A stretch of DNA of 64,000 nucleotides from Myxococcales bacterium (GCA_050288705.1 JBNKEI010000111.1:5872-69871), one strand, 5' to 3'. Shown: positions 10,083-62,548, counted from the stretch's first letter. The notes: generated from the letters alone by a model not told the origin. Numbers and translations are program-made.

Positions 10083-10204
10083 AGGATAGTGTGCTCTCGA
10101 CCCGGACCTCATAGCTTTCGCGATAATTCACCGTAATGTAAGCATATGCTTTAGCCAGGTGGGACTACGTGGATAAAAGTGCTGAGTAGTTACGAAATAT
10201 TAAT

Positions 10205-10891: not shown

Positions 10892-11009
10892 AGTAAGGGT
10901 GGTCTATTCTTATTCTACTGGCAGGGCAAGTCTGAACATTTGCTAATAGAGTGTAGTTTTCGCTAGTTGCTAACCAGCCTTTGCAGTAGAAATCGTTTAT
11001 GGTTGGGGT

Positions 11010-11813: not shown

Positions 11814-11897
11814 GCGAAACCAAGTGGAGCTGCCCTTGAAGCGTTCGCCTGTTTATGGAGAGAATAGATTCTAGATCGATTCTCACTCTAACAGGGG

Positions 11898-12260
11898 ATG
11901 AGAGCCATGTTAGTGTCCAGCGCAGAAAAGCGGCGTTATTCTCGGTTGCCAGTCAGTATCAAAATTGAAGGACATTGGTGGGATATCGAGAAAGAAGAAC
12001 ACGTTCTTTCTGCCTGGATGACTGCAGTTTCCGAAGGCGGAGCCTTACTGCGTTGCTCCGAACCTATTGGAGCTAATTCGGTTATAAAATTCGTCCTGCG
12101 CCTGAAAACCATGAAGAAAGTGGAAATAAAGGCAGTGGTTCGCTGGTGGAGGCGTAACGGAGAAGTTCGTGATTTGGGGGTGGAGTTTGCTGAACCAATC
12201 AAGCGCATTGGCGCATATGTGGAAAGGCAGTTGGCAATAATGGAAGAGAGAAATCGGTAA
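11898..12260 (+). CDS. PilZ domain protein
   Basis: RRYSR (RxxxR) followed by TAVSEGGALL (D/NxSxxG-like). Size is 120 aa. Confidence 0.7.
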   Translation: MRAMLVSSAEKRRYSRLPVSIKIEGHWWDIEKEEHVLSAWMTAVSEGGALLRCSEPIGANSVIKFVLRLKTMKKVEIKAVVRWWRRNGEVRDLGVEFAEPIKRIGAYVERQLAIMEERNR

Positions 12261-18132: not shown

Positions 18133-18221
18133 GGGTGTACGTTTTCAACCTTTTATTGACCACTACTTGATCAAAATGACACAATTAGGCCCATTTTTCT
18201 GCCAGAGGAGCCAGTTTTACT

Positions 18222-19334
18222 ATGATTCGTGTAGCGATAGTGGGAGCAACCGGAATAGTTGGGCAGCAGGCCCTAGTAGCATTAGAAAACCACCCTTGGT
18301 TTCTAGTCACTAAGCTGGCGGCCTCCCAGCGATCCGCAGGAAAGACTTACGTTGAGGCCTTGAAAGACCACTCCGGGAGCATGAAGTGGTGGTGTTCAGA
18401 GCCGATTCCCGCTTCGGTAGCTCAGTTGCAGGTAGAAGAAGCTTCTCAGTTAGATGTTAGCGAAGTTGATTTGGTTTTTTCCGCGGTTGACACCGCGGTT
18501 GCCAAAGAATTGGAGCCTCAGTACGCCCAAAGTAAGCCAGTAATTAGTACTGCCTCGGCTTTTCGTTACCAAGAAGACACCCCCATTTTGGTTGGTGGGG
18601 TGAACATGGATCACGCCAGCTTGCTGGCGGTTCAACAAAAAAACCGGGGTTGGAAAGGCTTTATCGCTCCTAAACCCAACTGCACAATTTCCGGACTGGT
18701 GGTTTCTCTCAAGCCCATTCTCGATAGTTTTGGAATTCGGCGAGTAGTGATGACTTCGCTGCAAGCCATGTCTGGTGCAGGAAGAACCCCCGGGTTGTCA
18801 GCCATGGACATGATGGAAAATGTGGTTCCCTACATTCCGGGAGAAGAATCCAAGGCCGAAAGCGAGCCACAGAAGATTCTGGGAATTCTGCAAGAAGCCA
18901 ACGCAAACGCAACCATCGCTCCTGCCTCATTTACCACTTCCGCTACTTGTACCCGGGTTCCGGTATTAGACGGTCATCTGGTTAGCGCAGTGGTAGAAAC
19001 TGAGCAGGCGGCAAGTCCAGAAGAAATTAAGAAGGCGATGACCGAATTTGGGAAGGATTTTATCAATTTAGGATTGCCTAGCTCGCCAAAAAATTTGATC
19101 GAAGTACTAGATGATCCTTTTCGTCCGCAACCTCGACTAGATCGAGAGCGTGGCGGAGGAATGACCACTACGGTAGGTCGTTTGCGGCTAGAATCGGTGC
19201 TTGGTAACGGAATTAAGTACGTCTGCTTGGCGCATAATACCAAGCTGGGAGCCGCTAAAGGAGCTATTCAGACCGCGGAATATCTGGTGAAACATTATTT
19301 GAATTGGGATGTGCCAAAGACAAGGTGTCTATGA
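18222..19334 (+). CDS. asd: Aspartate-semialdehyde dehydrogenase
   Basis: VAIVGATGIVGQ, active-site region KPNCTISG, and a later LDGH motif. Size is 370 aa. Confidence 0.9.
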   Translation: MIRVAIVGATGIVGQQALVALENHPWFLVTKLAASQRSAGKTYVEALKDHSGSMKWWCSEPIPASVAQLQVEEASQLDVSEVDLVFSAVDTAVAKELEPQYAQSKPVISTASAFRYQEDTPILVGGVNMDHASLLAVQQKNRGWKGFIAPKPNCTISGLVVSLKPILDSFGIRRVVMTSLQAMSGAGRTPGLSAMDMMENVVPYIPGEESKAESEPQKILGILQEANANATIAPASFTTSATCTRVPVLDGHLVSAVVETEQAASPEEIKKAMTEFGKDFINLGLPSSPKNLIEVLDDPFRPQPRLDRERGGGMTTTVGRLRLESVLGNGIKYVCLAHNTKLGAAKGAIQTAEYLVKHYLNWDVPKTRCL

Positions 19335-19939
19335 AAGTAGTAGGGCTAACCGGAGGAATTGCCTCGGGAAAGAGTACAGTAGCGCGCATTCTTGCGAGCC
19401 GAAGTATTCCCGTGGTGGACGCCGATAGCCTGAGCCGTGAAGCAATGGCCCCCGGACAGCCCGCATACCAAGACATTATTCATCGCTGGCCAGAAGTAGT
19501 TTCCCCTAGTGGTTCTATTGACCGTGTTCGGTTAGGAACCATTGTTTTTTCCGACCACCAACAATTGCGTGAGCTAACTGACCTGGTTCTTCCTCGCTTA
19601 GCGCAGTTGTACAAATTGCGTAAGCAAGAGTGGGAAAGACAGAATTTTCGCCTTGGCGTTTTTGAGGCGGCCACTCTTTTGGAAGAAAATTTAGAATCGT
19701 TGGTTGACGGAGTCTTATTGGTAGGTGCTTCCGAGCAAAATCAAATACACCGATTAGCCGCGCGCAATAAATATAGCGAACAGGAAGCTCGTGCACGTAT
19801 GGCAGCACAGCTTTCTTGGGAAGAAAAGCTTACCCGGGCTAATTGGTTGCTAGATAACTCCGGTGACCTAAGCTCATTGGAACAAAAAGTTTGGGAGGTT
19901 TGGGAACAAATTTGCAAAGATTTGCTCAAGTCTGACTGA
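19331..19939 (+). CDS. coaE: Dephospho-CoA kinase
   Basis: MKVVGLTGGIASGKSTV P-loop. The ATG overlaps the asd TGA (ATGA). I rejected the longer 19304 start. Confidence 0.9.
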   Translation: MKVVGLTGGIASGKSTVARILASRSIPVVDADSLSREAMAPGQPAYQDIIHRWPEVVSPSGSIDRVRLGTIVFSDHQQLRELTDLVLPRLAQLYKLRKQEWERQNFRLGVFEAATLLEENLESLVDGVLLVGASEQNQIHRLAARNKYSEQEARARMAAQLSWEEKLTRANWLLDNSGDLSSLEQKVWEVWEQICKDLLKSD

Positions 19940-21659: not shown

Positions 21660-22283
21660 TTAGCTGCTGCTGCTGCTGTCGGAGTAGCTATGCCTCGATA
21701 CGCTGGTGGCTTGTTCGCTAGAAGTTCGCAGAGTTTTGCCATGCTCTGTTCTGATGGAGTTTTCTGAAGGGGAGCGATTGTAGTACTCGCCAAGTCCTAT
21801 TGCCCTCCACTCTTCCATTCCCAGAGGAGTCGATGGGTCTGTTCTGCTTCCTTCATACCCCGCATCGGTTCCCCTCATAATGTTTTTCGCATGAACCAAT
21901 TCGTGGCCTAAACTTATGAAGGAATCTTCCGAGTTTCCTGGCACTCGACTTGCTTTTCCACTGCTATCAATGCTCATTCCCTGGTCTGGCGACCAATGCG
22001 TCGAAGCGCTGCTGCCCTTCTTGCTTTTTGTAAAAGGCCAAAAACTGCTAGAAGAACCACCCGATTCGGGCCGTGTATACACTGCTCCATGTGGGCCGGC
22101 GTCTCGTATAGTTACGGTTTTTTTTCCTCCTGACGAATAGTGGCTAATATCATCTAGAAGCTTTCTCCCAGACGATCCCTGTTTTATCTGCTGTAGTGCA
22201 CTTGCTGTTTTTTTTCCATAGTTACGGTCTCTACTAGATTCCTCAATACGAATTCCAGGATTGGTGGTTCTAGAAATAGGCAT
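21660..22283 (-). CDS. NleD / peptidase M91-like zinc metalloprotease (effector-type)
   Basis: GHELVHAKNIMRGT (HExxH), EEWRAIGLGEY, and ENSIRTEHGKTLRTS match my recollection of the NleD/M91 core. Ser-rich tail. Start chosen at MPISRTT (22283) rather than the ORF-track 22364. Confidence 0.6.
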   Translation of the reverse strand: MPISRTTNPGIRIEESSRDRNYGKKTASALQQIKQGSSGRKLLDDISHYSSGGKKTVTIRDAGPHGAVYTRPESGGSSSSFWPFTKSKKGSSASTHWSPDQGMSIDSSGKASRVPGNSEDSFISLGHELVHAKNIMRGTDAGYEGSRTDPSTPLGMEEWRAIGLGEYYNRSPSENSIRTEHGKTLRTSSEQATSVSRHSYSDSSSSS

Positions 22284-22528
22284 GTAGATATCCCTTTTTA
22301 TAGATTTCAAAAATTTATTCCAAAAAAGCATAGCGTACGTCATACCGCAATGGAAACATGACATCCTGGAGCCTCGGCTAGCTAAAGAGTGGTGGCGCTT
22401 ACCAAAACTGACGTGGGCTGTTTGAAGTAATCTGTGACGCTTCGCTGTTAATCTGTGCTAGCTTGTGGTATGCACCCATCGCTTGCGATTCAAAACCATA
22501 CCAGGCAAATACTAGAGTGAAACAGCAC

Positions 22529-25416: not shown

Positions 25417-25464
25417 GAAGTGGAAAGACTGCCGTCGCTGGAAAGCGAGCATTTCGGTAGGTCG

Positions 25465-25498
25465 GGAGCGAGACTAATCTCGCTCCTTTTTATTTTTT
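25465..25498 (+). terminator. Rho-independent terminator
   Basis: ggagcgaga-ctaa-tctcgctcc stem-loop followed by tttttatttttt. Confidence 0.65.
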
Positions 25499-25503
25499 GT
25501 GTT

Positions 25504-25908
25504 CTAATTTCTTCGTTCGGACCTAATTTCTGATGATTCAAACCGATGCGACAGAGCAATAATTTGCGAATCGCGTTCCGCCAGTTGAGAAGCTAAACGC
25601 ATACATCGAAGGCTCAGCTCCATCTCTTTTTCTACCAGCGTGGCTATTTTTTGATCCTTTCTTTTGTTTTCTAATTTCAGAGAACGAATCTCCTGATCCT
25701 TTTGAATATTCTGTTCACGAATCAGAGCATTTTCTTTGTCCATCGATGATGTGTAAGAGCGCAGTTTCTCTGACTCGTTAGATTGCTCGGAAAGCTCGTA
25801 TTTTAGTTCACGTAGCTCAATCTCGAGTTGATTAGCCTCTTTGCGAAGCACTTCTATTTCAGCGACATCGATAGAGATACTTTCAAAATCCATTTTGTCG
25901 CTCAACAT
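25504..25908 (-). CDS. Coiled-coil protein (hypothetical), last gene of the hydrogenase/signalling operon
   Basis: Heptad-rich, charged sequence (EIEVLRKEANQLEIELRELKYEL...). Start chosen at MLSDKMDF, with a G-rich RBS upstream. The ORF-track start (26025) would overlap the upstream kinase. Confidence 0.5.
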   Translation of the reverse strand: MLSDKMDFESISIDVAEIEVLRKEANQLEIELRELKYELSEQSNESEKLRSYTSSMDKENALIREQNIQKDQEIRSLKLENKRKDQKIATLVEKEMELSLRCMRLASQLAERDSQIIALSHRFESSEIRSERRN

Positions 25909-26002
25909 GGCAAACCCCCGAAATTTGATAATGGGAAAGATGTCCATGTTAATGACGCAAAAAGAAGAACAAGTCAATGTGGCAAATATACGACTAACGT
26001 AC

Positions 26003-27112
26003 CTATAGTGGGAACAAGATCTCAATAATAGTTCCCTGATCTGGTTTGCTATTTAGTTCCACTTTTCCATTGTAAAGCGATACTACTTTGCTAACGGTAG
26101 AAAGTCCTAGTCCAGTACCGGGAATCATGCGCGTTTTCTCGTTCTTAATACGTACAAAATCTTGAAAAAGACGTTTGGTTTCTTCTTGATTCATGCCAAT
26201 GCCGGTGTCTTCTATTTGAATGGAAATGTGTGATTTGGTAGGTATTATGCGTACTATAACTTTTCCTCCTGGACGATTATATTTAACTGCATTAGTCAGT
26301 AGGTTGGAAAAAATGAGTTCAATTTCCACTCGATCAGCATTCATGAAAACCGAATCGGCATGAATTTCTAAACTAACTTGTTCGCGATTGGCTTGAGAGC
26401 GCACTAACTCCAACGAATTTTTTGCAATTTCAAAAAGATCTAGAGAAACTAGTTCCCGTTTGCGTTGTCCAGATTCCACTCGCGTCAAATCGAGAAGGTC
26501 GTTAATTAGCTGGCGCATAGCCAAAAGTCGGGTGATGCTACGGTCAATCATAAGGTCATAAGATTGTAAATCGACTCCCAGAGATCGTGCTTGCATGGCC
26601 AGCAAGTAGCCTTCCACCGCGGCCAAAGGGGCTTTTAATTCGTGAGCGAGAACCGAGACAAATTGAAAGCGTATACGTTTTTTTTCTTCCGCGTGACGCT
26701 TGGCTTGTTGCTGAAGGGCAACATGCCTGCTGGCTTTGTGAACGGTTGCGCGCAATTCATCAGGGGTAAACGGCTTGGCAAGAAAATCGAACGCCCCTTG
26801 TTTGGTGGCTAGCACTGCGGTTTCTAGCGTGGCGTAGGCGGTTATCATAACCGTCAGGGCTTCCGGCGAGGAGGAAGAGAGCCGCTCCAAAACTTCTAGA
26901 CCTGATAAGCCAGGCAGCTTGTAATCCAAAAGAACAATGTCCGGTGAAAAGGAAGATATTTTTTGAAGGGCAACTTCTCCTGACTCCGCTTGATCAACCA
27001 CAAATTGAAGTTGACCTTCTTGCATTGGTAAAACCAACCGTTCCAGCAATCTGGTGACGCTTAGCCGCATACCTAGCTCGTCGTCTACCACCAGCACGCG
27101 TAAGGATTCCAT
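26003..27112 (-). CDS. Hybrid receiver-histidine kinase (REC-HisKA-HATPase_c)
   Basis: REC domain (VLVVDDE...LLDYKLPG...AKPF), H-box VSVLAHELKAPLAAVEG, N-box NLLTNAVKY, G-boxes EDTGIGM / GTGLGL. Confidence 0.85.
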   Translation of the reverse strand: MESLRVLVVDDELGMRLSVTRLLERLVLPMQEGQLQFVVDQAESGEVALQKISSFSPDIVLLDYKLPGLSGLEVLERLSSSSPEALTVMITAYATLETAVLATKQGAFDFLAKPFTPDELRATVHKASRHVALQQQAKRHAEEKKRIRFQFVSVLAHELKAPLAAVEGYLLAMQARSLGVDLQSYDLMIDRSITRLLAMRQLINDLLDLTRVESGQRKRELVSLDLFEIAKNSLELVRSQANREQVSLEIHADSVFMNADRVEIELIFSNLLTNAVKYNRPGGKVIVRIIPTKSHISIQIEDTGIGMNQEETKRLFQDFVRIKNEKTRMIPGTGLGLSTVSKVVSLYNGKVELNSKPDQGTIIEILFPL

Positions 27113-27147
27113 GGCTAACGCCCACTCCCATGAGGCAGGGCTTAATT

Positions 27148-27558
27148 CTAAGAATTAAGTAGCCTTCCAATTTCTTTGCGAATCTGTTCGGAGCGCAATG
27201 GTTTCGCCAAGATTGCATCGGCCTTAATCCAGGCGCGTCCAGGGCTGGCTTCAAAATCAATTCCAGTCTCGTTAGTAACGGAAGTAACCAAGATAACCGG
27301 AGTTTTTGGATTCTTCTTTTTTACTCGATGGCATAAAACAAAGCCCGCGTCCATGTACTCCATCATCAAATCGGCAACTACGAGATCGGGCGTATTTTGG
27401 GCAAGTGCCTCATCAGCCTCGCGCAAACTCGATGCGCACAAAACCTGAAATCCGCAAGCTTTCAAATGCATTTGGGTTTGCAGCAAGAAATCGGGATCGT
27501 CATCGACAACCAGAATAGTTTTTGAAGTAACAGCCGCTTTTTCTGGGGAAGTGCTCAT
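27148..27558 (-). CDS. Single-domain response regulator (receiver only)
   Basis: ILVVDDDPD...VVADLMME...AKP. 136 aa, with no output domain. Confidence 0.85.
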   Translation of the reverse strand: MSTSPEKAAVTSKTILVVDDDPDFLLQTQMHLKACGFQVLCASSLREADEALAQNTPDLVVADLMMEYMDAGFVLCHRVKKKNPKTPVILVTSVTNETGIDFEASPGRAWIKADAILAKPLRSEQIRKEIGRLLNS

Positions 27559-27568
27559 TTTGCAATCC

Positions 27569-29563
27569 TCATTGGGTGGGACGACGCGGTAATTTTATGG
27601 TGAAAGTGGTGCCGGTGGGCCCTTGTGAGGGGTCGGCATTGGATTGAACTTGAATATCTCCATGATGCATCTTGATGATGCCGTACGAGACGGGCAAGCC
27701 AAGGCCCGTACCCCGCCCCATAGGTTTGGTGGTGTAAAATGGCTCGAAAATGCGACCCAGGTTCTGGGCAGGAATGCCGGTCCCTTGATCGCGGATTTTT
27801 ATGCAAACCTGTTTCTCATCTCCAGATGTCTGTATGAACACCTTACCTGGAGAAGGGGTGGCATCGTAGGCGTTAGAAAGCAAATTGATAATAACTTGTG
27901 CTATTTGATCGCGATCAAGCTCGGCAATGGGATTTCCTTCATGGCAAATTTCTACCATTAGATGGGAAGGAATAGGTATTGCTCCCACGCTTCTGTTGAT
28001 CAATTCTCGCAAATCCAATGCCTGGGGTACTACCGTATTTTGACGAGCAAAGTTTAGTAATCCAGCAACAATACGTTTGCAGCGATTAGTTTGCTCGGCA
28101 ATCATGGTCAAATCGTCGCGCATAGAGTGGTCTGCGGATATTTCTTCTAGTAACAAATGAGAATACATCAGTACTACCCCCAAGGGGTTGTTCACCTCGT
28201 GGGCAATGCCCGCAGCCAATTGACCCATGCTAGCCAGCCGCTCTGCATGCATAAGCGCTTCTTGCGCGGAAGCCAGTTTTTCATGAGAAATGGCCAGTTC
28301 CTGAAGAGTTTTCCGAAGATGTTCAATGGCATAAGGAAGGCACATTTCCAGTTCGGCAAGTCCAGAAAAAATAGCCTTGGCATGCTCGCGACAAGTTTCG
28401 TAGCCACATGCACCACAGTTGAGTTCGTCTTGTTGAGTAGCCTTACCCATTCTCAACAGTATTTCTGCTAGCACTTCGTCATTTGGTTCGCTTAAGCGTT
28501 GATCGTAAGTAACAAACGACCGTCTAAGGTTAAGATCGGTGAACTGGTCCATTTGTTGTAGCCAGAACTCTATTTCCGAACTGGGTCGTCCCCGAACATA
28601 AGCAACCACGCTAGTGTGCCGGGAAAAGCGGGAATGGGCGGTAGACATACCCGGACCCATAATGCATCCTTTGCAAGCTAGCACTTCCACTAGAGGAAAA
28701 CTCAATAAGCCTCTTTCCAATTCGTCGAGTGCTTCAAACCCACCTATACGTCCTTCCGAAGCTATGGCTTTAAGGGAAGACAATCCTTGATCGATTTGGG
28801 CAACTTCCAAAAGTCCGTGGCTTAAAGGAAAAAGCGCCCCCTTTTGAGCTCGCGGTGGATCGAAATCACTCGGAATTACCAAACTGGGAGTCAACCTTTG
28901 TTGCTCCAACATTTTGCGCAATTCCACAAAGGTAAGAACAGCATCAACTTCGCCGATCACCGATTTGCTTTGAGCCTCGCGTTTTTTTGCAATGCACGGA
29001 CCAATAAAGACAACCTTGCGCTCCCCTTGGTAAAGCCGTTTTAAATATCTGGCTATGGCTATCATGGGAGAAACAATGGGCGCCAGCAAGGGAACTAAAC
29101 TAGGCTGATAGCGCTCTACGTATCCAATAACCGCCGGGCAAGTAGTGGCAATCCAGTTGCCATTTCCCGGGGAGTTCAATAGCGCTTGGTATTCGCGGGC
29201 AACTAAATCCGCACCGAATCCCACTTCGTGAACTGAACGAAAACCCAACCTGCGCAGCATTCCTACAAGTTGTTCGCTGGTAGTTTCGGGAAACTCGGCA
29301 GGAAAGCTAGGAGCCAAGCATGCGCACACTGAATACTTGCTAATAAGTTGGTTTACTTCATCTATGCTATGGCGGAATCTTTTGGCTCTTTGACTACAAA
29401 TCTGAACACAATTTCCGCAGCCAATGCACCGTTCTTCTATTACTTCTGCCTGGCCGCCTTTTATACGAATTGCCTTGGCCGGACACTCGCGAACACATGT
29501 GTAGCAAACCCTACAGCGTTCTTTAATCGTTTCGATCAAAGGATGGCCGACCAAGGGATTCAC
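27569..29563 (-). CDS. [FeFe]-hydrogenase-like sensory domain fused to histidine kinase (HydS-type, kinase-linked)
   Basis: Two ferredoxin motifs (CRVCYTCVRECP, CIGCGNCVQICS). H-cluster-like motifs ATTCP (L1 variant), GPCIAKKRE (L2), EVLACKGCIMGPG (L3). A Cys-rich CGACGYETC segment. Then H-box AAGIAHEVNNPLG, N-box LLSNAYDA, DQGTGI and GTGLGL. The GTG start abuts the hydA stop (TAAGTG). Confidence 0.75.
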   Translation of the reverse strand: MNPLVGHPLIETIKERCRVCYTCVRECPAKAIRIKGGQAEVIEERCIGCGNCVQICSQRAKRFRHSIDEVNQLISKYSVCACLAPSFPAEFPETTSEQLVGMLRRLGFRSVHEVGFGADLVAREYQALLNSPGNGNWIATTCPAVIGYVERYQPSLVPLLAPIVSPMIAIARYLKRLYQGERKVVFIGPCIAKKREAQSKSVIGEVDAVLTFVELRKMLEQQRLTPSLVIPSDFDPPRAQKGALFPLSHGLLEVAQIDQGLSSLKAIASEGRIGGFEALDELERGLLSFPLVEVLACKGCIMGPGMSTAHSRFSRHTSVVAYVRGRPSSEIEFWLQQMDQFTDLNLRRSFVTYDQRLSEPNDEVLAEILLRMGKATQQDELNCGACGYETCREHAKAIFSGLAELEMCLPYAIEHLRKTLQELAISHEKLASAQEALMHAERLASMGQLAAGIAHEVNNPLGVVLMYSHLLLEEISADHSMRDDLTMIAEQTNRCKRIVAGLLNFARQNTVVPQALDLRELINRSVGAIPIPSHLMVEICHEGNPIAELDRDQIAQVIINLLSNAYDATPSPGKVFIQTSGDEKQVCIKIRDQGTGIPAQNLGRIFEPFYTTKPMGRGTGLGLPVSYGIIKMHHGDIQVQSNADPSQGPTGTTFTIKLPRRPTQ

Positions 29564-31285
29564 TTACTGATTCACCTTCCGGGGGCCGTAGTGGGTATGT
29601 AGCAATTGGTGGCTTTTTTCGCCCAAAGGCTCTCCCAGAAATTCTTTGTACAGCCGTTGAACTTCGGTGTTGGAATGAGAAGTCCGCGAAGTGTCTTCTT
29701 GATCGATTTTGTACAGAGCGTTCATTCGCGCTCGGACGGCTTCCATATCAATTACCAAGGGTTGCCCACCTCCGGCGATACATCCCCCCGGACAAGTCAT
29801 TATTTCTATAAATTGATAGGGGCTTTTTCCGGCGCGAATCTCGTCAAGAATTGGCTTTGCATTACCAATACCGCTTATTACCACAGCCTTAAGCTTCAAA
29901 TCGCCAACCTTGAGCTCGGCTTCTTTAACCCCGGTTAGTCCCCGAAGTGGTTGCAGTTTGGGAGCATTTAACTCTTCCCCAGTCAACATAAAATGGGCGG
30001 TACGGATAGCAGCTTCCATGACACCCCCTGTAGCTCCGAAAAGCTTACCGGCGCTACTTCTTTCACCAAAAGGAGAATCTGCTAACTCTGGTTCCAGGGA
30101 GGAAAGGTCAATGCCTCGCGACTTAATAAGACGCGCTAATTCTCGCGTAGTCAAAACCACATCTACGTCGGCATGCTCACGGCGAGCCATTTCGGGACGG
30201 TTTGCTTCAAATTTCTTGGCAGTGCAGGGCATTACCGAGACGCTGAAAATCTTTTCTGGCGCCAAGTTCTGCTTCTCTGCAAAGAAACTTTTGATTAATG
30301 CTCCTAGCATTTGCTGAGGGCTTTTGCATGTAGAGACATTGCCTAGCAAATCAGGGTAACTCTGCTCTACGAATTTAATCCAACCGGGGGAACAGCTAGT
30401 AATCATGGGTAGCTTTCCACCAGTTTTCAGGCGTTGCACCAATTCCGAAACCTCTTCCATAATGGTGAGGTCGGCAGAAAAGCCAGTATCAAATACGTAG
30501 TCGATTCCCAATCGGCGCATTGCAGCATTAAGAAGCCCGGCAACGTCAACACCCGGTTTTACGCCGAACAGTTCACCTAGGGTAACCGAAACTGCCGGCG
30601 CAATTTGAACCACTACCTTAATTTCGGGATCATTTATGGCTTTTAGCAGGTTGCGAAACTGGCTTTGTTCGGTAAGCGCGCCAGTGGGGCAAGCCATGAT
30701 GCACTGACCGCAGCCAATGCAACTAGAGACATTAAGTCCTTCCTGAAAAACAGTGCCAATTTGAGTACGCGCACCCCGTCCAACAAAATCCAGCGCTGCT
30801 ACTCCTTGAATCTCCTCGCAAACGCGAACGCACCGACCACACAATATGCACTTGGCAGGGTCGCGAACTACCGAAGGACTAGAAGTGTCCATTAGACACT
30901 CGTTTTTAGTTCCCGAGTAGCGTCTTTGACGAACATTCAAATTTTCCGCCAGCTCCTGAAGCTGACAGTTTCCACTACGAGAGCAGAAAAGACAGTCGTC
31001 AGGGTGGTTGGATAGAAGAAGCTCGACTATTACCTTCCGGGCCATAACTGCTCGTTCCGAGTGCGTTTTTACCTTCATTCCCTCGCGAACAGGAAATGCA
31101 CAACTAGGAACCAAATTGGGAACACCCTCCACCTCTACTACGCACAAACGGCAAGCACCAGTTGGGAAGAGGTCTGGCATATTGCATAACGTAGGAACAT
31201 GAACTCCTGCGCGGCGTAGAGTGGTGAGAAGGGTTTCCCCGGCCTCAGCATCAACCATTTTGTTATTGACTTGGATCTGGAACAC
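29564..31285 (-). CDS. hydA: [FeFe] hydrogenase catalytic subunit (HydA/HndD-type, multi-cluster)
   Basis: N-terminal 2Fe-2S, HPDDCLFCSRSGNC, and two 4Fe-4S motifs. H-cluster motifs are TSCSPGW (L1 variant), MPCTAKKFEA and EIMTCPGGCIAGGGQP. Start reassigned to the GTG at 31285 (VFQIQVNNKMV), with a GAGAGG RBS 5 nt upstream and 11 nt after the hydB stop. Confidence 0.85.
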   Translation of the reverse strand: MFQIQVNNKMVDAEAGETLLTTLRRAGVHVPTLCNMPDLFPTGACRLCVVEVEGVPNLVPSCAFPVREGMKVKTHSERAVMARKVIVELLLSNHPDDCLFCSRSGNCQLQELAENLNVRQRRYSGTKNECLMDTSSPSVVRDPAKCILCGRCVRVCEEIQGVAALDFVGRGARTQIGTVFQEGLNVSSCIGCGQCIMACPTGALTEQSQFRNLLKAINDPEIKVVVQIAPAVSVTLGELFGVKPGVDVAGLLNAAMRRLGIDYVFDTGFSADLTIMEEVSELVQRLKTGGKLPMITSCSPGWIKFVEQSYPDLLGNVSTCKSPQQMLGALIKSFFAEKQNLAPEKIFSVSVMPCTAKKFEANRPEMARREHADVDVVLTTRELARLIKSRGIDLSSLEPELADSPFGERSSAGKLFGATGGVMEAAIRTAHFMLTGEELNAPKLQPLRGLTGVKEAELKVGDLKLKAVVISGIGNAKPILDEIRAGKSPYQFIEIMTCPGGCIAGGGQPLVIDMEAVRARMNALYKIDQEDTSRTSHSNTEVQRLYKEFLGEPLGEKSHQLLHTHYGPRKVNQ

Positions 31286-31296
31286 GGGAGCCTCTC

Positions 31297-33315
31297 TTAG
31301 ACTGCGAGTACTGCCTCGAGTCGGCAGACTTCGAGACATGTGCCACAGGCAACGCATTTTTTCTGGATTATCTGGTGAGGCTGTTTCGGTGATCCTATAA
31401 TTGCTTGGGTTGGGCATGCTTTCACGCATAGACCACATCCCTTGCAATTTTCAGGGTCAATGGTGTAACGCAGCATCTCTTTGCAGACTCCCGCAGGACA
31501 GCGCCGCTCGAAAATATGGGCTTCGTATTCGTCGCGAAAGTAGCGCAGAGTCGATAGCACCGGGTTTGGCGCGGATTGCCCCAAACCGCATAGACTAGTG
31601 TCGCGGATAACCGTGGCCAGTCGCTGTAAAAGCATTACTCCTTGAAAACGAAGCAACGAATCATGCCCTGTTTCCTTGCGCCGGCCCTCGCTTATACGGG
31701 TGAGTATTTCTAGCATTCGGCGAGTTCCCTCGCGGCACGGAATGCATTTTCCACACGATTCCCGGCCAATGAAGTCCATAAAAAACTTGGCCATGTTAAT
31801 CATGCAGGTGCGCTCATCCATTACCACTAAACCGCCGGAGCCCATTATGGCGCCAACGTGCTTCATGGATTCATAATCGATAGGAAGGTCCAGATGCTCT
31901 GAAGGCAAGCAGCCTCCCGAAGGACCGCCAATTTGCACTGCCTTAAAGGCCCGGTTATTAGGTATGCCTCCTCCTATATCGTAAATAACCCTGCGCAAAC
32001 TGGTTCCTAAAGCAACTTCTGCAAGGCCGGTTCGGGTTATGTTTCCCGAAAGAGCAAATACTTTAGTTCCCTTGCTCTTTTCCGTACCTATGGAAGAAAA
32101 CCATTCCGCCCCCTTATCCACAATAGAAGGAACGTTAAAAAGGGTTTCTACATTGTTTACTGCCGAAGGCTTTCCAAAAAGACCACGCACCGATGGATAC
32201 GGGGGTCGAGGTCGAGGCATTCCGCGCCTTCCCTCAATGCTATGCATAAGTGCGGTTTCTTCACCACACACAAAGGCTCCAGCTCCCTGTTTCATCAAGA
32301 TGTCTAAGGAAAATCCCGAATCGAGAATATTTTCGCCCAGCAATCCGTAGGCTTTTGCTTGGGCAATAGCAGCGTGTAGGCGCCGAACCGCCAAAGGATA
32401 TTCCGCGCGAATGTAAATGTAGGCTTTAGAAGCCCCGATAGCATATGCCGCCAGGGCGAGACCTTCTAGAAGACGATGAGGGTCACCCTCAATTTCGGCG
32501 CGATTCATAAAAGCACCGGGGTCTCCCTCGTCAGCGTTACAAATAAGATAGCGTTGGTCGCTTTCTTCTTGGGCAGCAAGATTCCATTTTACGCCGGTAA
32601 GAAAACCTCCTCCGCCTCTTCCTCTTAGTCCGCTAGCAATTACCAAGTCGCGAACTTCTTGAGGGGTTTTGATACGCAGAGTCTGAGCGAATGCCTTCCA
32701 ACCGCCGCGAGCAATGTATTCATCCAAATTGGTGGGATCGATAATTCCGCAGTTAACCAGTACCCAGCGAGTTTGGGGAGCGAAAAACGGATGTTGGTCT
32801 TGAAAAAGTACACCTTCCCAAGGGGTGTACGAAGAATCGCGCATCTGGTAAAGCACGTGCTCGAATCTGATTGACCCAGCCAAGGTGGAATCAATAATGG
32901 TTGGGGCTAGCTCGGCGCTGATTTTGCCAAAACTAAGTCGGGTTTTACCGGGGAGCTGAATATCAACCATCGGCTCCGCTGTACACAAACCAATACACCC
33001 AACTTCAACTACCTCGGCATCAATCTTTTTTTGCGAAACGTGTTCTTTAACTGCTGCAAGCGTTTTACCGGCGCCAGCGCCAAGACCACAGCTTCCAGTG
33101 CCGACATAGATTACTGGGCGGCTTAGCTCTTCTCGTCGAAGTGTCCGAGCGCGTTGGCGTATTTGCTGACTGCAAGAATCATCAGCATGGCAATGAGGGC
33201 CTTCGGTAAAACAGGTTATTACCTCAGGGCAAGATTTCTCTGCGCTGTGCCAGCAGCGATCACAGCATTTTGGAATTGAATTCAACGGATCTCCTCCGAA
33301 TTGGGCATTGCTCAC
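31297..33315 (-). CDS. hydB: NuoF-like flavoprotein subunit of bifurcating-type hydrogenase (HydB/HndC)
   Basis: Thioredoxin-like 2Fe-2S domain (GSCGLGAGA...CIGLC), FMN/NADH site GRGGGGF, CGKCIPCREG, and C-terminal 2x[4Fe-4S] (CKGCGLCVKACP, CVACGTCLEVC). The GTG start overlaps the hydC stop (GTGA). Confidence 0.85.
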   Translation of the reverse strand: MSNAQFGGDPLNSIPKCCDRCWHSAEKSCPEVITCFTEGPHCHADDSCSQQIRQRARTLRREELSRPVIYVGTGSCGLGAGAGKTLAAVKEHVSQKKIDAEVVEVGCIGLCTAEPMVDIQLPGKTRLSFGKISAELAPTIIDSTLAGSIRFEHVLYQMRDSSYTPWEGVLFQDQHPFFAPQTRWVLVNCGIIDPTNLDEYIARGGWKAFAQTLRIKTPQEVRDLVIASGLRGRGGGGFLTGVKWNLAAQEESDQRYLICNADEGDPGAFMNRAEIEGDPHRLLEGLALAAYAIGASKAYIYIRAEYPLAVRRLHAAIAQAKAYGLLGENILDSGFSLDILMKQGAGAFVCGEETALMHSIEGRRGMPRPRPPYPSVRGLFGKPSAVNNVETLFNVPSIVDKGAEWFSSIGTEKSKGTKVFALSGNITRTGLAEVALGTSLRRVIYDIGGGIPNNRAFKAVQIGGPSGGCLPSEHLDLPIDYESMKHVGAIMGSGGLVVMDERTCMINMAKFFMDFIGRESCGKCIPCREGTRRMLEILTRISEGRRKETGHDSLLRFQGVMLLQRLATVIRDTSLCGLGQSAPNPVLSTLRYFRDEYEAHIFERRCPAGVCKEMLRYTIDPENCKGCGLCVKACPTQAIIGSPKQPHQIIQKKCVACGTCLEVCRLEAVLAV

Positions 33316-33815
33316 GGGGTGGCCTTTTTTCGATATCCTTGAAGAATAGTGGGAACTTTTTCCGGTCCCACGTTGGTATGAAATTCGCCAGCCACCGTAA
33401 TGACTGGCGCCAAACCGCAAGCTCCGATACACGCCACTACTTCCAAGCTAAACAGCCCATCTCTGGTAGTTTGACCAGGAGCAATTTTTAGGGTTCGACT
33501 AATGGCAGCCAACACATTTTCTGAACCCTTAACATGGCAAGCAGTTCCTCGGCACACCTGAATATGGTAGCGGCCCTGAGCTTGAAATCGAAATTGATTG
33601 TAAAAAGTAGCGACTCCAAAAACTTTGCTAGCCGGAAGATTTAAGTGCTGTGCAATGGCGACTATTGATTCTCGCGAAAGAAACCCCTCTGCCTCTTGAG
33701 TGGCTTGTAAAATGGGGATTAAGTGTTCGCGTTTTGGGCTAGCGTACTGCTCTAAAATCGCCGATAGCTTAGGGCTTATCGGACTAGTTTTGGTATCTTC
33801 AACGGGAATGGACAT
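33312..33815 (-). CDS. hydC: NuoE-like 2Fe-2S subunit (HydC/HndA)
   Basis: Pattern CRGTACHV...ACIGACGLAP, typical of NuoE/HoxE thioredoxin-like ferredoxins. Confidence 0.85.
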   Translation of the reverse strand: MSIPVEDTKTSPISPKLSAILEQYASPKREHLIPILQATQEAEGFLSRESIVAIAQHLNLPASKVFGVATFYNQFRFQAQGRYHIQVCRGTACHVKGSENVLAAISRTLKIAPGQTTRDGLFSLEVVACIGACGLAPVITVAGEFHTNVGPEKVPTILQGYRKKATP

Positions 33816-33824
33816 CCACTCCTC

Positions 33825-34031
33825 CTAGCTTGATAGGGCTGATTTGTTCGGAGTTTTTTGATGGTACGGCAAGCGCAAACGGCCGAGATCGCGACGCACT
33901 CGTGTCGCTCTGACTAAAGACCAAGACGCTAGTTGGTGAGAATAAATCGACATTTTTCCGGCTAGCTGGAAGCGGTGCAGTGCTCTCCGGTAAATAAACA
34001 TCCTTCCAATGGATTTATTCGATGCAACCAT
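33825..34031 (-). CDS. Rex-like winged-helix DNA-binding domain only (truncated redox-sensing repressor)
   Basis: SIGRMFIYRRALHRFQLAGKMSIYSHQLASWSLVRATRVRRDLGRLRL parallels the Rex N-domain (RL..Y.R.L......SS..La......a.qvRkDls.fG). The ORF stops after 68 aa, 9 nt before hydC, so there is no room for the NADH-binding Rossmann domain. Confidence 0.5.
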   Translation of the reverse strand: MVASNKSIGRMFIYRRALHRFQLAGKMSIYSHQLASWSLVRATRVRRDLGRLRLPYHQKTPNKSALSS

Positions 34032-34201
34032 GTCGCTTCATCCAGAAGGTTTACCAAACAGCTTGAATGTGTATGTCAGGATCGCATCGTTTACTGAGTT
34101 TCGAGCTAAGCACATCTTACTCTTGAGTCAAGAAAAATAGAACGGGGTTGGTTTTGCTCAGTGCGGCAAACGAGGCAATTTAAACACGGGAGAACACGCA
34201 A

Positions 34202-35314
34202 ATGGCGGAGAACTCAGAAGGAACGCAAGAGCAGTCATCGGAGGCAGAAGAGAGTAGGGGAAAACGTCGCGCAGACATGGTTTTCGCAGGAACGGCGGTG
34301 GGTGGATTACTTGCTATTGCACTGCTTTATAGGCACTTCCCGGCAATAATGGGAATGTTGCTGATAGCAGGCCTGCTGTCGTACGCTTTACTGCCTCTAG
34401 TAGACCGGTTGGACCAAAAAATGAACCGAACAGCTGCAGTACTAATCATTGCCTTGCTAGCGATGGGGCTTTTGGTAGGAACTGGAATATTGCTATTTCC
34501 CACAGTTGCGCAAGAACTAACGCAACTACCTAAGATAGCGGAGAGTACTGTAGAACTGGTGAAATCGTTTTTAGTGCGGCTTTCTGCTGTTCTTCCTGCA
34601 CCAGTTTGGGGTGTGATACAGGCGGTAGGTGAGTCGTTATGGAATGCCATTAATAAGGTTAGCCCGTCAAGTATTTCTAGTGCAGCATCGACTGCTCTGA
34701 CGGGTATTGCGGCGGTAGCTAGCAGTATAGTTTTTTTGCCAGTATTGATTTTTCTTATGCTGCGTAGTTATCACCCGATGGTGAAAAAAATTGCATCAAT
34801 GATTCCCCCTCGTTGGAAACCACGATTTGAGGCAAGAATAAAGGAAGCAGATCTGGTTTTGTCAGGGTTCATTCGTGGGCAGCTTCTGGTGGCTTTTGTA
34901 TTAGCGCTAACTTACGGAATTGGCTTTTCTTTAGTGGGAATTCCTTTAGGAGCGGTGGTAGGCCTGTTAGCGGGATTTGCAGAATTGATACCTTTTTTAG
35001 GGTCGATAATTGCAGTTGTTTTTGGGACGTTATTGGCTTTAGTGGGAGGCAAGCCAACCGATGCCTTATGGGTCATCGGAATATATTTCGTAGTACAAGC
35101 TCTGCAAGGTGCTTTGCTTTCCCCCATTGTACTTGGCCAGCAGGCGAGAATTGGACCAGTAGCAGTTATTGTCTCTTTGGCGGTAGGAGCTAATCTTTTT
35201 GGCATTATCGGAATGCTGTTAGCGGTACCTGTAGCAGGGCTGATTAAGGTTGCAACTAGAGCTGCCGCGCACGCATATTGCCAAAGCAATTTTTTTCTCC
35301 GTGAAGCCCCTTGA
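34202..35314 (+). CDS. AI-2E family transporter (PerM/UPF0118)
   Basis: Multi-TM protein with the FAELIPFLGSIIA motif and the family's typical topology. Confidence 0.8.
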   Translation: MAENSEGTQEQSSEAEESRGKRRADMVFAGTAVGGLLAIALLYRHFPAIMGMLLIAGLLSYALLPLVDRLDQKMNRTAAVLIIALLAMGLLVGTGILLFPTVAQELTQLPKIAESTVELVKSFLVRLSAVLPAPVWGVIQAVGESLWNAINKVSPSSISSAASTALTGIAAVASSIVFLPVLIFLMLRSYHPMVKKIASMIPPRWKPRFEARIKEADLVLSGFIRGQLLVAFVLALTYGIGFSLVGIPLGAVVGLLAGFAELIPFLGSIIAVVFGTLLALVGGKPTDALWVIGIYFVVQALQGALLSPIVLGQQARIGPVAVIVSLAVGANLFGIIGMLLAVPVAGLIKVATRAAAHAYCQSNFFLREAP

Positions 35315-39101: not shown

Positions 39102-40022
39102 TTAGACAGAAGAATCGAAAAGTCCCCGTACAACCGCTGCAATTGCCAAAGGTGTTCCAATTCGTTCATCCAAAAGACCACGTAATTCCTTAGCGAAAGA
39201 AGCAGTGTCTGGAAAGCGTTCCTGCGGTGACAATGCAAAACCACGCATGATTACTCCATTGAGTTCTACGGAAAGTTGAGAGCGCAATTGGTTCAAAGGT
39301 GCTGGGTTTGCGCAGCGAATGGCAGCGCATACTTCTTCCTTGTTTTTTCCAATAAATGGGCGTTGGTTACATAGCAACTCGTAAATAACTGCTGTCGCCG
39401 CCCATTGGTCGGCATAGGGGTCGATGATTCCCTGTAGTGCTTCTGGCGAAAGGTAATAAGGCTTCCCCCATACCGCAGTATTCTGTTCTTTTCGGTCGCG
39501 GTCCCTTGCGTGAGCTATGCCGAAGTCCCCTAATTTTATCTCTCCAACTCGCGAAATAAAAAGGTTCGAGGGAGAAACATCTCGATGCACAATTCCTTGT
39601 AGCTGACCAGATGGCCCCAGCATGTTATGAGCGTAGGTAAGTGCTTCTAAAAGCGTTACTCCTAGAAAAATGGCAAAATCAATCGGGAGCAGTATGTTTC
39701 GCTGCTTGCATCGCTGCAGTATTTTCCCCAGATCGCGGCCTTCAACATACTCCATGGACATAAAGTGCTGCCCATTTATGGTTCCTGACTCAAAAACCCT
39801 CACGATGTTAGGATGTTGCAGCATGCTGGAAAGCAGCGCTTCATGTTTAAAGAGCTGTACATAATGGGGATTATTCGCAAGACTGGGCAACAATCGTTTG
39901 ACAGCCAGAATATGGGGAGGAGCGTTCTCTCTGCGATCTATGGCGCGAAAGACTTCGGCCATCCCTCCTTTTCCAATAATGTCTACTAGCTCGTAAGGCC
40001 CTAATGTCCCTAGCGACTCCAT
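39102..40022 (-). CDS. Hanks-type Ser/Thr protein kinase
   Basis: GKGGMAEVFRA...AVKRL, HRDVSPSNLF, DFGIA, SPE. Confidence 0.9.
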   Translation of the reverse strand: MESLGTLGPYELVDIIGKGGMAEVFRAIDRRENAPPHILAVKRLLPSLANNPHYVQLFKHEALLSSMLQHPNIVRVFESGTINGQHFMSMEYVEGRDLGKILQRCKQRNILLPIDFAIFLGVTLLEALTYAHNMLGPSGQLQGIVHRDVSPSNLFISRVGEIKLGDFGIAHARDRDRKEQNTAVWGKPYYLSPEALQGIIDPYADQWAATAVIYELLCNQRPFIGKNKEEVCAAIRCANPAPLNQLRSQLSVELNGVIMRGFALSPQERFPDTASFAKELRGLLDERIGTPLAIAAVVRGLFDSSV

Positions 40023-40978
40023 GTAGTTCTCGTGGCTGAGCGCGCTAAACCATTTTTCTGCGCCATCTGTCGAATCATCGAATATTCAAAGGGAACCTTT
40101 TCTCGGAGGGGCTGCAGATCAGGATCGGAATCCATTTCTTGGGGAAACGCGTATCCATTCTCTACCGCACGCTGGAGTGAGCGAAGTGATTCCCTGGTTT
40201 TTCCTTCTCGGGACAATGCGCATGCCAGAAGATAATGGGTGTCATCATTGCTAGGAGCAAAGTGAAGAGCCTTTTCTAAGTATTTCCGTGCACGTGCAGT
40301 GTCTCTAGAAGTCATGAAAGTAATGGCTAAACGACGTAATACCTCGGGATCATTCGGGTTAAGTCTTAACGAATGAAAAAAAGCGCGTTGTGCCGATTCG
40401 TAGTCGCCATCTTGTAAAGAGGCATTTGCTTTTTGGAATAGGGCATTAACCTTGGAAGGAAGCGAATTTCGGCATTCCGATTGCAAGGATTGTAGAGAGC
40501 GGCGGTCGAGTTCAAAGAGGTGGCTGGGAAAAGGAGATTTGCTGCAGCCAGGATCGATTCGCGATTCAACTACCCCCATGATTTTATCGGTGCTTGTGTC
40601 GAAGCTAGCTATAACAAAAAACCATTCCCTAGAAGAACAACCAGATTCTTCCCAGCAAGCACGTACCTCACCAATAAAAATATCATTGGCCAGACGTCCG
40701 TGTAATATTTCGGTTCCTCGGTAAAAATTGCAAACAGGTGATTTCTCCCCCAGGATGCCAACCAGCAGTTGCCCGGAAGACTTTAGCTGTACGCATCCGT
40801 AAGGAGTATTCCAAGTGCCTTGGATAAGCAGTTTAGTTCTTGAAGAGATAGCGCTGTTGTCAACTTCAGAAACCTCGCTAGAGGTTGTGGGCACTTCTTC
40901 AGCGCGATCTAACCCTGCTAGAATTGGTATGGTGAGCAGCAGCCACCAGTAGCCGAGAGCTGTTTTCATTGTAATCAA
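40010..40978 (-). CDS. Secreted TPR-repeat protein
   Basis: N-terminal signal-like helix. C-terminal TPR motifs (YESAQRAFFHSLRLNPNDPEVL..., ARKYLEKALHFAPSNDD...). It overlaps the kinase start by 13 nt. Confidence 0.7.
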   Translation of the reverse strand: MITMKTALGYWWLLLTIPILAGLDRAEEVPTTSSEVSEVDNSAISSRTKLLIQGTWNTPYGCVQLKSSGQLLVGILGEKSPVCNFYRGTEILHGRLANDIFIGEVRACWEESGCSSREWFFVIASFDTSTDKIMGVVESRIDPGCSKSPFPSHLFELDRRSLQSLQSECRNSLPSKVNALFQKANASLQDGDYESAQRAFFHSLRLNPNDPEVLRRLAITFMTSRDTARARKYLEKALHFAPSNDDTHYLLACALSREGKTRESLRSLQRAVENGYAFPQEMDSDPDLQPLREKVPFEYSMIRQMAQKNGLARSATRTTWSR

Positions 40979-62513: not shown

Positions 62514-62548
62514 TGGAGCTTGTAACACCTTAAAAAAAGGAGGCAAAC

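Follow-up and report, generated by a model that had tools for sequence, protein, structure and literature searches.

Organization of the hydrogenase gene cluster

The present analysis deals with a hydrogenase gene cluster from a Myxococcales bacterium and especially with one of its products, a protein of 664 amino acids (aa) in which a hydrogenase-like part is fused directly to a histidine kinase (hereafter the sensor). The cluster lies at 25504-34031 of a 64,000-nucleotide stretch of DNA (GCA_050288705.1 JBNKEI010000111.1:5872-69871), and this whole 64-kb stretch, to which the counts and coordinates given below refer unless another locus is named, is called the window. It matches contig JBNKCJ010000022.1 of the NCBI assembly GCA_050287685.1. 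An original prediction, made from the sequence alone, had described eight co-directional genes here. The scan for open reading frames (ORFs), combined with Pfam assignments, found all eight, on the minus strand. Together with the flanking regions they are arranged as follows, listed in the direction of transcription.

34032-34201, minus strand: upstream intergenic region, divergent from an AI-2E-family transporter gene; presumed promoter region, without a Rex operator
33825-34031, minus strand: Rex remnant, 68 aa, recognised by PF06971 only
33312-33815, minus strand: hydC, NuoE-like [2Fe-2S] subunit, 167 aa; PF01257 (2Fe-2S_thioredx) with 168 bits, NCBIfam NuoE/HoxE family
31297-33285, minus strand: hydB, NuoF-like subunit for flavin mononucleotide and NAD(H), 662 aa from a TTG start, extended at the N-terminus and with a C-terminal 2x[4Fe-4S] domain; Complex1_51K, NADH_4Fe-4S and two Fer4
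29564-31285, minus strand: hydA, catalytic subunit of a group A [FeFe] hydrogenase, 573 aa; Fer2_4, NADH-G_4Fe-4S_3, Fer4, Fe_hyd_lg_C (314 bits) and Fe_hyd_SSU
27569-29563, minus strand: sensor, hydrogenase-like histidine kinase, 664 aa; two Fer4, Fe_hyd_lg_C (156 bits), PF04060, HisKA and HATPase_c
27148-27558, minus strand: stand-alone receiver (REC), 136 aa; PF00072 with 59.7 bits
26003-27112, minus strand: receiver-histidine kinase hybrid (REC-HK), 369 aa; REC, HisKA and HATPase_c by Pfam
25504-25908 from ATG, or 25504-26025 from TTG, minus strand: charged, heptad-like ORF of 134 aa, without a Pfam or NCBIfam family
25464-25487, no strand assigned: GC-rich 10-bp hairpin between convergent gene ends, from the terminator scan

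The genes follow each other closely. Nine nucleotides (nt) including a GGAGGAG Shine-Dalgarno sequence separate the TAG of the Rex remnant from the ATG of hydC, the TAA of hydB is followed after 10 nt by the GTG of hydA, and the TAA of hydA directly abuts the GTG of the sensor gene (TAAGTG, gap of 0 nt). Further downstream, the sensor TGA is followed after 10 nt by the ATG of REC, and REC-HK begins 35 nt behind REC. The tight junctions of the original prediction are therefore found at TAAGTG, whereas the proposed GTGA overlap of hydC and hydB is not certain: it is one possible reading, in which hydB starts with GTG at 33315 on the hydC stop codon, while public gene calls place the start 27 nt further downstream, at a TTG behind GGAGGAG, a strong Shine-Dalgarno sequence. 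Likewise, the last ORF overlaps REC-HK only if an unlikely TTG start is used; the ATG chosen by the gene callers (25908) leaves a gap of 94 nt with a weak promoter-like site inside.

This last ORF is called by the public gene callers, but it found no tblastn match at E≤1e-4 in 80 related loci. Since it is not conserved there and may have its own promoter, the coiled-coil ORF is probably not part of the module, and its inclusion in the operon by the original prediction is doubtful. The promoter scan detected no sigma-70-like site in the upstream region (34032-34201), and within the cluster the numbers of terminator and promoter hits were at or below chance. The hairpin at 25464-25487 is the probable end of the transcription unit; a T-run follows it on the plus strand only, and on the minus strand an A-run precedes it. 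A single transcript for the cluster is presumed, and the counts of the terminator and promoter scans inside it speak neither for nor against this.

Domain structure and key residues of the sensor

The sensor can be divided into the following parts, all encoded on the minus strand.

aa 13-59 (29387-29527): F-domain with 2x[4Fe-4S], two Fer4 matches
aa 79-304 (28652-29329): H-domain, Fe_hyd_lg_C
aa 383-408 (within 28334-28423): C-terminal cluster motif Cx2Cx4Cx16C; PF04060 FeS match at aa 381-410
aa 409-474: signalling helix, from the predicted structure
aa 446-508 (28040-28228): HisKA with His455, 49.8 bits
aa 550-661 (27581-27916): HATPase_c, 91 bits

Residues were numbered against the [FeFe] hydrogenase CpI after aligning the sensor by phmmer with CpI and with HydA subunits from HydABC complexes of solved structure, and conservation within the family was taken from an alignment of 119 full-length members. 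The three motifs that had been noticed before, ATTCP (residues 139-143), GPCIAKKRE (188-196) and EVLACKGC (293-300), are present in the sensor and align to L1, L2 and L3 of CpI. All four H-cluster ligands are present, CpI C300, C355, C499 and C503 corresponding to C142, C190, C297 and C300 of the sensor, and K358, which binds a cyanide ligand, corresponds to K193. The proton-relay residue C299 of CpI is replaced by Thr141. Hence, the combination of a Thr at the relay position with retained cluster ligands was read correctly from the sequence, and a loss of the H-cluster cysteines on proper alignment, which would have spoken against the idea, was not observed. The earlier list of deviations had stopped at the Thr in L1, which stands, and it has to be extended. 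In the proton pathway, E279, E282 and R286 are exchanged for Tyr, Ala and Asn (E279Y, E282A, R286N), and the two methionines framing the diiron site are replaced by Gly188 (M353G) and Leu295 (M497L). The C-terminal cluster motif had also remained unlisted.

The pattern is not a peculiarity of this copy. Among the 119 family members the eight cysteines of the F-domain (residues 17-56), the four H-cluster cysteines C142, C190, C297 and C300 as well as K193 are invariant, and so are Gly188, the cysteines C383, C386, C391 and C408 of the Cx2Cx4Cx16C motif, and His455. At the position of CpI C299, Thr (85), Ser (16), Asn (12) or Ala (4) was found, never Cys. The kinase part possesses intact H (AHEVNNP with His455), N (LSNAYDA), G1 (DQGTGI), F (FEPFYTTK) and G2 (GTGLGL) boxes, as it is characteristic for sensor kinases of the HisKA family, and its core matches the ZraS core at 2e-31.

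The AlphaFold2 model of the sensor, built with 68 sequences, reached a mean predicted local distance difference test score (pLDDT) of 85.3. It shows one helix from residue 409 to 474, which is capped by C408, the final ligand of the cluster, and extends without a break into the DHp helix with His455. In Foldseek searches, the first ~430 residues of the model matched [FeFe] hydrogenases (CbA5H, DdH and the HydA of HydABC) with target-normalised TM-scores of up to 0.67, and the last ~235 residues the kinase core of ZraS with a target-normalised TM-score of 0.70. Neither Pfam nor the AlphaFold2 model revealed a PAS domain in the sensor, while the same tools recognised the PAS-type paralog of a related locus (L064, see below). 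The PAS domain that follows the C-terminal cluster in group C proteins of the TmHydS type (M2f) is thus absent.

Relationship to other [FeFe] hydrogenases

The hydrogenase-like portion was placed in a neighbor-joining tree, in which PAS-type HydS-like proteins of related loci stood in for TmHydS and TamHydS. The kinase-fused proteins formed a tight clade with a mean identity of 60%, which adjoins the PAS-type HydS-like proteins (40% identity) and is far from the A3 HydA proteins (26%). The tree and the identities agree with the proposed assignment to the sensory group C or HydS type. Moreover, four sequence features of the putative sensory groups C and D are found in the sensor, namely the H-cluster cysteines with Lys358, the loss of the proton pathway, the 2x[4Fe-4S] domain together with Cx2Cx4Cx16C, and the phylogenetic position. 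The latter motif unites the putative sensory group C (M2f) and group D (M2e) (PMC8163306; PMC13104023). The sensor passes no NCBIfam model, which explains the generic names that the family bears in public annotations.

Two other sensor types were encountered in the related loci. At L064 of a Thermoguttaceae metagenome-assembled genome (MAG), a sensor of the kinase-fused kind is encoded together with a HydS-like protein of the PAS type, the latter composed of F-domain, H-domain, FeS motif and PAS (10001-12001 and 17525-19378), and the two genes surround a HydABC-like cluster. Therefore, kinase-fused and PAS-type sensors are distinct paralogs which are able to co-occur. A third hydrogenase-like type, found at L061 (2665-4269) and L080 (385-1950), combines an N-terminal HATPase_c_2 domain, an anti-sigma-factor-like ATPase, with Fer4 and the C-terminal FeS motif; it gives a weak and partial Fe_hyd_lg_C match and is ~20-24% identical to the other sensor types.

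Distribution and conservation of the three-gene module

The protein search returned 7867 sensor relatives at E≤1e-10, of which the best 120 are described here. Apart from one fragment of 586 aa they share the architecture of the sensor at 55-61% identity. Counting one genome per species, a sensor relative is present in at least 590 genomes, which represent more than 15 phyla. The best 80 of these genomes are all MAGs and belong to Hydrogenedentota, Planctomycetota, Myxococcota, Acidobacteriota, Nitrospirota, Fermentibacterota, Lentisphaerota, Bacteroidota, Marinimicrobia, Calditrichota, Eisenbacteria and others. The gene neighbourhood was drawn from the best 80 loci in species-representative genomes, and each feature was counted only where the flank sufficed.

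REC-HK follows directly downstream of the sensor in 68 of the 71 loci (96%), and a stand-alone REC stands beside the sensor in 55/68, on its upstream side in 8 of them. HydA is encoded directly upstream of the sensor in 58/68 loci, and all three genes for HydC, HydB and HydA are found upstream in 49/58. A full-length Rex occurs upstream in 35 of 55 loci, and HydE, HydF or HydG within 10 kb of the sensor in 17 of 41. The complete set is illustrated by L087 with the order hydG..hydF-hydE-rex-hydCBA-sensor-REC-REC-HK. When all ORFs of the 80 loci were clustered, the recurrent families were HydC, HydB, Rex, HydE/G and HydF. Hence, sensor, REC and REC-HK form a very widespread and tightly conserved three-gene module, and the copy in the window is ordinary apart from its decayed rex. 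Both receiver proteins of the window possess the canonical Asp/Asp/Thr/Lys set: the stand-alone REC has the acidic pocket D19-D21, the phospho-acceptor D63, T92 and K119, and REC-HK has D10/D11, D63, T91 and K113 in its receiver domain as well as His157 in HisKA and the N, G1 and G2 boxes.

Some loci vary in gene order. At L010, L011, L022, L027, L028, L033, L045 and L080 the REC gene sits between hydA and the sensor gene. In these eight variant operons, ~1.4 kb of additional coding sequence separates the HydB-like gene from that of HydA, and in seven variant loci, including L011 (4520-7768), the HydB-like ORF comprises ~1,080 aa (median 1,082).

The closest full-length sensor homolog (61% identity) is encoded at L086 (4828-19676), where hydG, a lyase gene, hydF and hydE run straight into sensor-REC-REC-HK-REC-REC. 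The two extra stand-alone receivers are followed by a cluster for a group 4 membrane-type [NiFe] hydrogenase, and neither HydABC nor a catalytic [FeFe] hydrogenase was found within 10 kb on either side. Since the maturase genes abut the sensor gene in the absence of a catalytic [FeFe] hydrogenase, it can be argued that the sensor itself receives the [2Fe] subcluster.

These observations also bear on the view that the sensor is a metabolic enzyme, i.e. an extra catalytic subunit of low rate that works with HydABC and in which the kinase is secondary or vestigial. TmHydS and TamHydS indeed keep a measurable H2 turnover (PMC10055695; PMC8163306), and a MAG study raised such a role for a group C1 enzyme beside bifurcating subunits (PMC8542988). 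However, the catalytic motifs of the kinase and His455 are invariant, a cognate-looking REC-HK follows in 96% of the loci, the module also occurs without HydABC at L086, and the proton pathway for fast turnover is missing, so that we regard a primarily metabolic role as very improbable.

The associated HydABC enzyme

HydA passes the NCBIfam model NF040763, "NADH-dependent [FeFe] hydrogenase, group A6", with 819 bits against a cut-off of 765, and it matches HydA1 of Thermoanaerobacter kivui (8A6T_A, 1.1e-189) and of Acetobacterium woodii (7Q4V_A, 7.2e-165) over the full length. HydB aligns nearly full-length (query residues 42-61 to 656-659) to the B subunits of bifurcating enzymes, i.e. 7T2R_B (9.8e-218), A. 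woodii 7Q4V_B and Thermotoga maritima 7P5H_B, and these matches take in the Fe-S domains at both of its ends; with T. kivui 8A6T_B the alignment begins at HydB residue 90. The hydC gene is kept upstream in the relatives. All three products thus have the subunit domains of a HydABC/Bfu-type trimer (HydDB A3; NCBIfam A6), which supports by sequence the bifurcating-type HydABC of the original prediction.

The L1 motif of HydA reads TSCSPGW (30386-30400, ACT AGC TGT TCC CCC), with a Ser at the position of the cubane ligand Cys300 of CpI. A defective HydA was considered and rejected, since the TSCSP motif is common to 111 of the 120 closest HydA homologs and since A. woodii HydA1, in which Ser301 ligates the cluster, is active with normal spectra (PMC10021017). 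For the same reason the enzyme of the window is regarded as a normal HydABC of the A. woodii type, for which bifurcation is putative. The N-terminus of HydB (33285-33140) bears a CCxxC "NuoF prefix" that scores 41 bits with NCBIfam NF040902, just below the cut-off of 45; this extension lies outside the region aligned to the solved HydB structures.

Decay of the Rex layer

In the relatives a Rex protein of 215-222 aa precedes hydC. The remnant in the window scores 31.5 bits with PF06971 (cut-off 27) and 28.4 bits with the NCBIfam model for Rex (cut-off 126), and it is omitted by the public gene callers. Between its residues 4-49 and residues 15-60 or 3-48 of the relatives' full-length Rex the identity amounts to 50-52%, and nothing matches beyond. 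The "Rex-N remnant" was therefore well named, as the residues equivalent to Rex 15-60 alone remain. Compared to the relatives ~450 nt of rex are deleted, so that of the DNA-binding domain the N-terminal helices are left, ending with the RRDL recognition helix, and the wing as well as the NAD(H)-binding Rossmann domain are missing.

A Rex operator is missing as well. A canonical TTGTGAA-N4-TTCACAA box with up to two mismatches was found up to 300 nt upstream of the relatives' rex at 18 of 47 loci, compared to 2 of 235 control windows. Upstream of the window cluster (310 nt, 34022-34331) the best site had six mismatches, which equals background, and the scan of the whole window gave no match near the cluster; the method is considered sound, because the same scan finds the canonical boxes of the relatives. 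No other rex was found in the 64-kb window, which therefore has no Rex repressor with winged helix, Rossmann domain and operator. Hence, control of the window operon by an NADH-responsive Rex appears to be lost in this lineage, barring a copy elsewhere that uses a different site. In most relatives the same operon would also be under Rex (NADH/NAD+) control, a layer that seems to have decayed here. This apparent natural loss of Rex control is the one unusual feature of the window copy, since a truncated rex combined with a missing Rex box was met in the window only.

Other genes in the window

The other large ORFs of the window gave by Pfam housekeeping functions only (arginine biosynthesis, RelA/SpoT, RNase R, TrpS and others), and no DNA-binding response regulator occurred among the scanned ORFs of the 64 kb. 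A second histidine kinase, of the HAMP type, is encoded at 60918-62555. A weak tblastn match of hydrogenase maturases at 12307-13758 was discarded, as it belongs to an unrelated B12-radical S-adenosylmethionine protein.

Three further observations concern genes apart from the hydrogenase cluster. An ORF of 596 aa (16342-18132, minus strand) contains the sheath domains T6SS_VipA (aa 30-155) and VipB (aa 289-485) in one polypeptide; the scanned window ORFs contained no further type VI genes. Outside the cluster there are also an ORF of 234 aa from the Peptidase_M91 "effector protein" family (21660-22364, minus strand) and, at 39102-40978 (minus strand), a Ser/Thr protein kinase gene which in the public calls overlaps a gene for a TPR-repeat protein.

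Proposed function and alternative explanations

Taken from residues, domains and the structure model, the 664-aa protein is probably a histidine kinase that senses H2 (or H2/redox) by means of a putative sensory [FeFe] module of the group C type. According to this proposal, an H-cluster made by HydE, HydF and HydG would be inserted into the sensor, bind H2 and oxidise it slowly, a low turnover being expected because the proton pathway is missing. A redox or conformational change in the H-domain and the accessory clusters would then reach the C-terminal four-cysteine cluster domain, where C408 caps the long helix that leads to the DHp helix with His455, and the signal running along this helix would alter autophosphorylation. 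The phosphoryl group could be passed to the adjacent REC and/or to the receiver domain of REC-HK, the latter acting as a second-tier kinase toward an unlinked output regulator that would adjust hydrogen metabolism by way of the expression, maturation or activity of HydABC.

Several points weigh against this proposal. First, tblastn with the maturases of related loci found no hydE, hydF or hydG in the 64-kb window. Second, the C-terminal cluster of TamHydS stays unreduced under 1 atm H2 and was judged not to be central to signalling (PMC13104023), for which reason the coupling in the sensor may be conformational instead of redox-based; by this analogy, a redox relay through the C-terminal cluster could be wrong even if the coupling through the helix is right. 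Third, clustering of all ORFs from the 80 loci gave no recurrent DNA-binding response regulator near the module. Fourth, three JGI metagenome contigs with the closest HydA (L081-L083, 77% identity) have the order rex-hydC-hydB-hydA-REC-REC-HK, followed by an HXXEE-domain protein, and are without the sensor; therefore, the two receivers can work with another input. Independently of these points, the literature agrees with the original prediction in that kinase-linked sensory [FeFe] hydrogenases are a bioinformatic class only (PMC5037454; PMC13104023).

One alternative concerns the question whether H2 is the signal at all. The sensor could be a redox sensor that carries [4Fe-4S] clusters only, or uses the H-domain as an electron input, and informs the kinase how far ferredoxin or the HydABC electron chain is reduced. 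The absent proton pathway, the strict conservation of three accessory clusters, the company of Rex as another redox sensor and a window free of maturase genes would fit such a function. Nevertheless, we consider it rather unlikely, because the four H-cluster cysteines and the CN-binding Lys358 are invariant in 119 members and the H-cluster-type fold is retained according to Foldseek and the model. Furthermore, at L086 the sensor gene adjoins those for the maturases and a catalytic [FeFe] hydrogenase is missing nearby, and TmHydS and TamHydS with similar substitutions bind a functional H-cluster (PMC10055695; PMC8163306).

The sensor-free loci L081-L083 raise the other question, whether the adjacent genes form one circuit in this genome. 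It is conceivable that REC and REC-HK receive their input from another kinase, while the sensor addresses an unlinked partner. Besides L081-L083, the two further stand-alone receivers downstream at L086 and the HAMP-type histidine kinase present in the window at 60918-62555 would be compatible with separate circuits. However, sensor and REC-HK are adjacent in 68/71 loci from more than 15 phyla, the gaps in the window are tight (0, 10 and 35 nt), and where REC is displaced (8 loci) it merely changes to the other side of the sensor. We therefore find separate circuits doubtful and return to a common phosphorelay as the preferred explanation.

Regarding the output of the H2-sensing kinase, the statement that a DNA-binding output is missing holds for response regulators, none of the DNA-binding type recurring near the module in the 80 loci; it does not hold for transcription factors in general, since relatives have full-length Rex proteins with Rex boxes, i.e. 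an ancestral DNA-binding partner. As a tentative and improbable variant, sensor, REC and REC-HK could on their own make up a phosphorelay that responds to H2 and whose output is non-transcriptional, phosphorylated REC acting, for instance, directly on HydABC or Rex. With such an output, the lack of linked DNA-binding response regulators across ~80 loci (more than 15 phyla) would be accounted for.

Comparison with known systems

The enzyme beside the sensor has well-studied counterparts. HydA, HydB and HydC of the window match the HydABC of A. woodii and T. kivui in full length, with the exception of T. kivui HydB (from residue 90), and the Ser-for-Cys ligand of the [4Fe-4S]H subcluster is common to A. 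woodii and the window HydA (PMC10021017).

For the sensor itself, TmHydS and TamHydS are the nearest references, and as of 2026 they are the only characterised putative sensory [FeFe] hydrogenases (PMC13104023). TmHydS resembles the sensor in its N-terminal 2x[4Fe-4S], the presence of all H-cluster ligands, the lack of the proton-relay Cys, the Gly at M353 and the C-terminal four-Cys motif (PMC8163306; PMC10055695). Compared by its published description, it ends with PAS, has no kinase and carries Ala at 299 and Ser at 497 in place of the Thr and Leu of the sensor, which in contrast to TmHydS has no PAS and continues by a direct helix into the HisKA/HATPase core. TamHydS shares with the sensor the missing proton pathway, Leu at M497, the C-terminal Cx2Cx4Cx16C and the lack of PAS, and its gene is located upstream of those for a trimeric bifurcating hydrogenase, a kinase-like ATPase being encoded separately in the vicinity (PMC8163306). 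However, TamHydS has Ser or Thr at M353, where the sensor has Gly, and it is not fused to a kinase. The location next to a catalytic enzyme is no exception, as group C (M2f) genes often share an operon with a group A hydrogenase (PMC8163306; PMC10055695).

Kinase-linked forms have been mentioned before. HydDB listed group C1 in 2016 as "histidine kinase-linked (putative)", and its groups C1 and C3 resemble the sensor as bioinformatic classes of putative H2 sensors tied to two-component or phosphatase signalling (PMC5037454). In the C1 example of the literature the kinase is encoded by a separate neighbouring gene (PMC8542988), whereas it is fused in the window sensor. A 2022 MAG study reported for Ca. 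Lernaella stagnicola a group C3 hydrogenase that includes a histidine kinase domain and lies beside a group A3 enzyme (PMC9324843), while a review on [FeFe] hydrogenase diversity from the same year makes no mention of a kinase (PMC8924675). Hence, the sensor is a member of an already known class, the fusion has been noted before (PMC9324843), and the module is not rare.

Its value lies elsewhere. For putative sensory [FeFe] hydrogenases, the 2026 study on TamHydS calls for the identification of interaction partners (PMC13104023). The kinase fusion would offer a built-in and easily assayed read-out of H2 sensing, namely autophosphorylation and phosphotransfer, and it comes with two obvious candidate partners, REC and REC-HK. 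Moreover, the family occurs in many uncultured anaerobic phyla, nearly always beside HydABC, and thus bears on how H2 production is set in fermenters and syntrophs.

Kinases and stand-alone receivers without an output domain in the operon are also present in Spo0F/Spo0B of Bacillus and RedCDEF of Myxococcus. They are an analogy only, since generic two-component domains are what they have in common with the window.

A further parallel is the regulatory [NiFe] hydrogenase system HoxBC-HoxJ-HoxA (HydDB 2b), which follows the same logic, a slow H2-binding hydrogenase coupled to a histidine kinase that controls hydrogenase genes (PMC5037454). It differs in its unrelated metal centre and protein family, in having sensor and kinase as separate proteins, and in its output through a DNA-binding response regulator, whereas in the window a single polypeptide unites sensor and kinase, and a linked DNA-binding regulator is missing. 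If the improbable variant of a self-contained phosphorelay with non-transcriptional output were true, HoxBC-HoxJ as a [NiFe] sensor would have its first [FeFe]-based counterpart, in which the cluster is coupled to the kinase through a single helix and without PAS.

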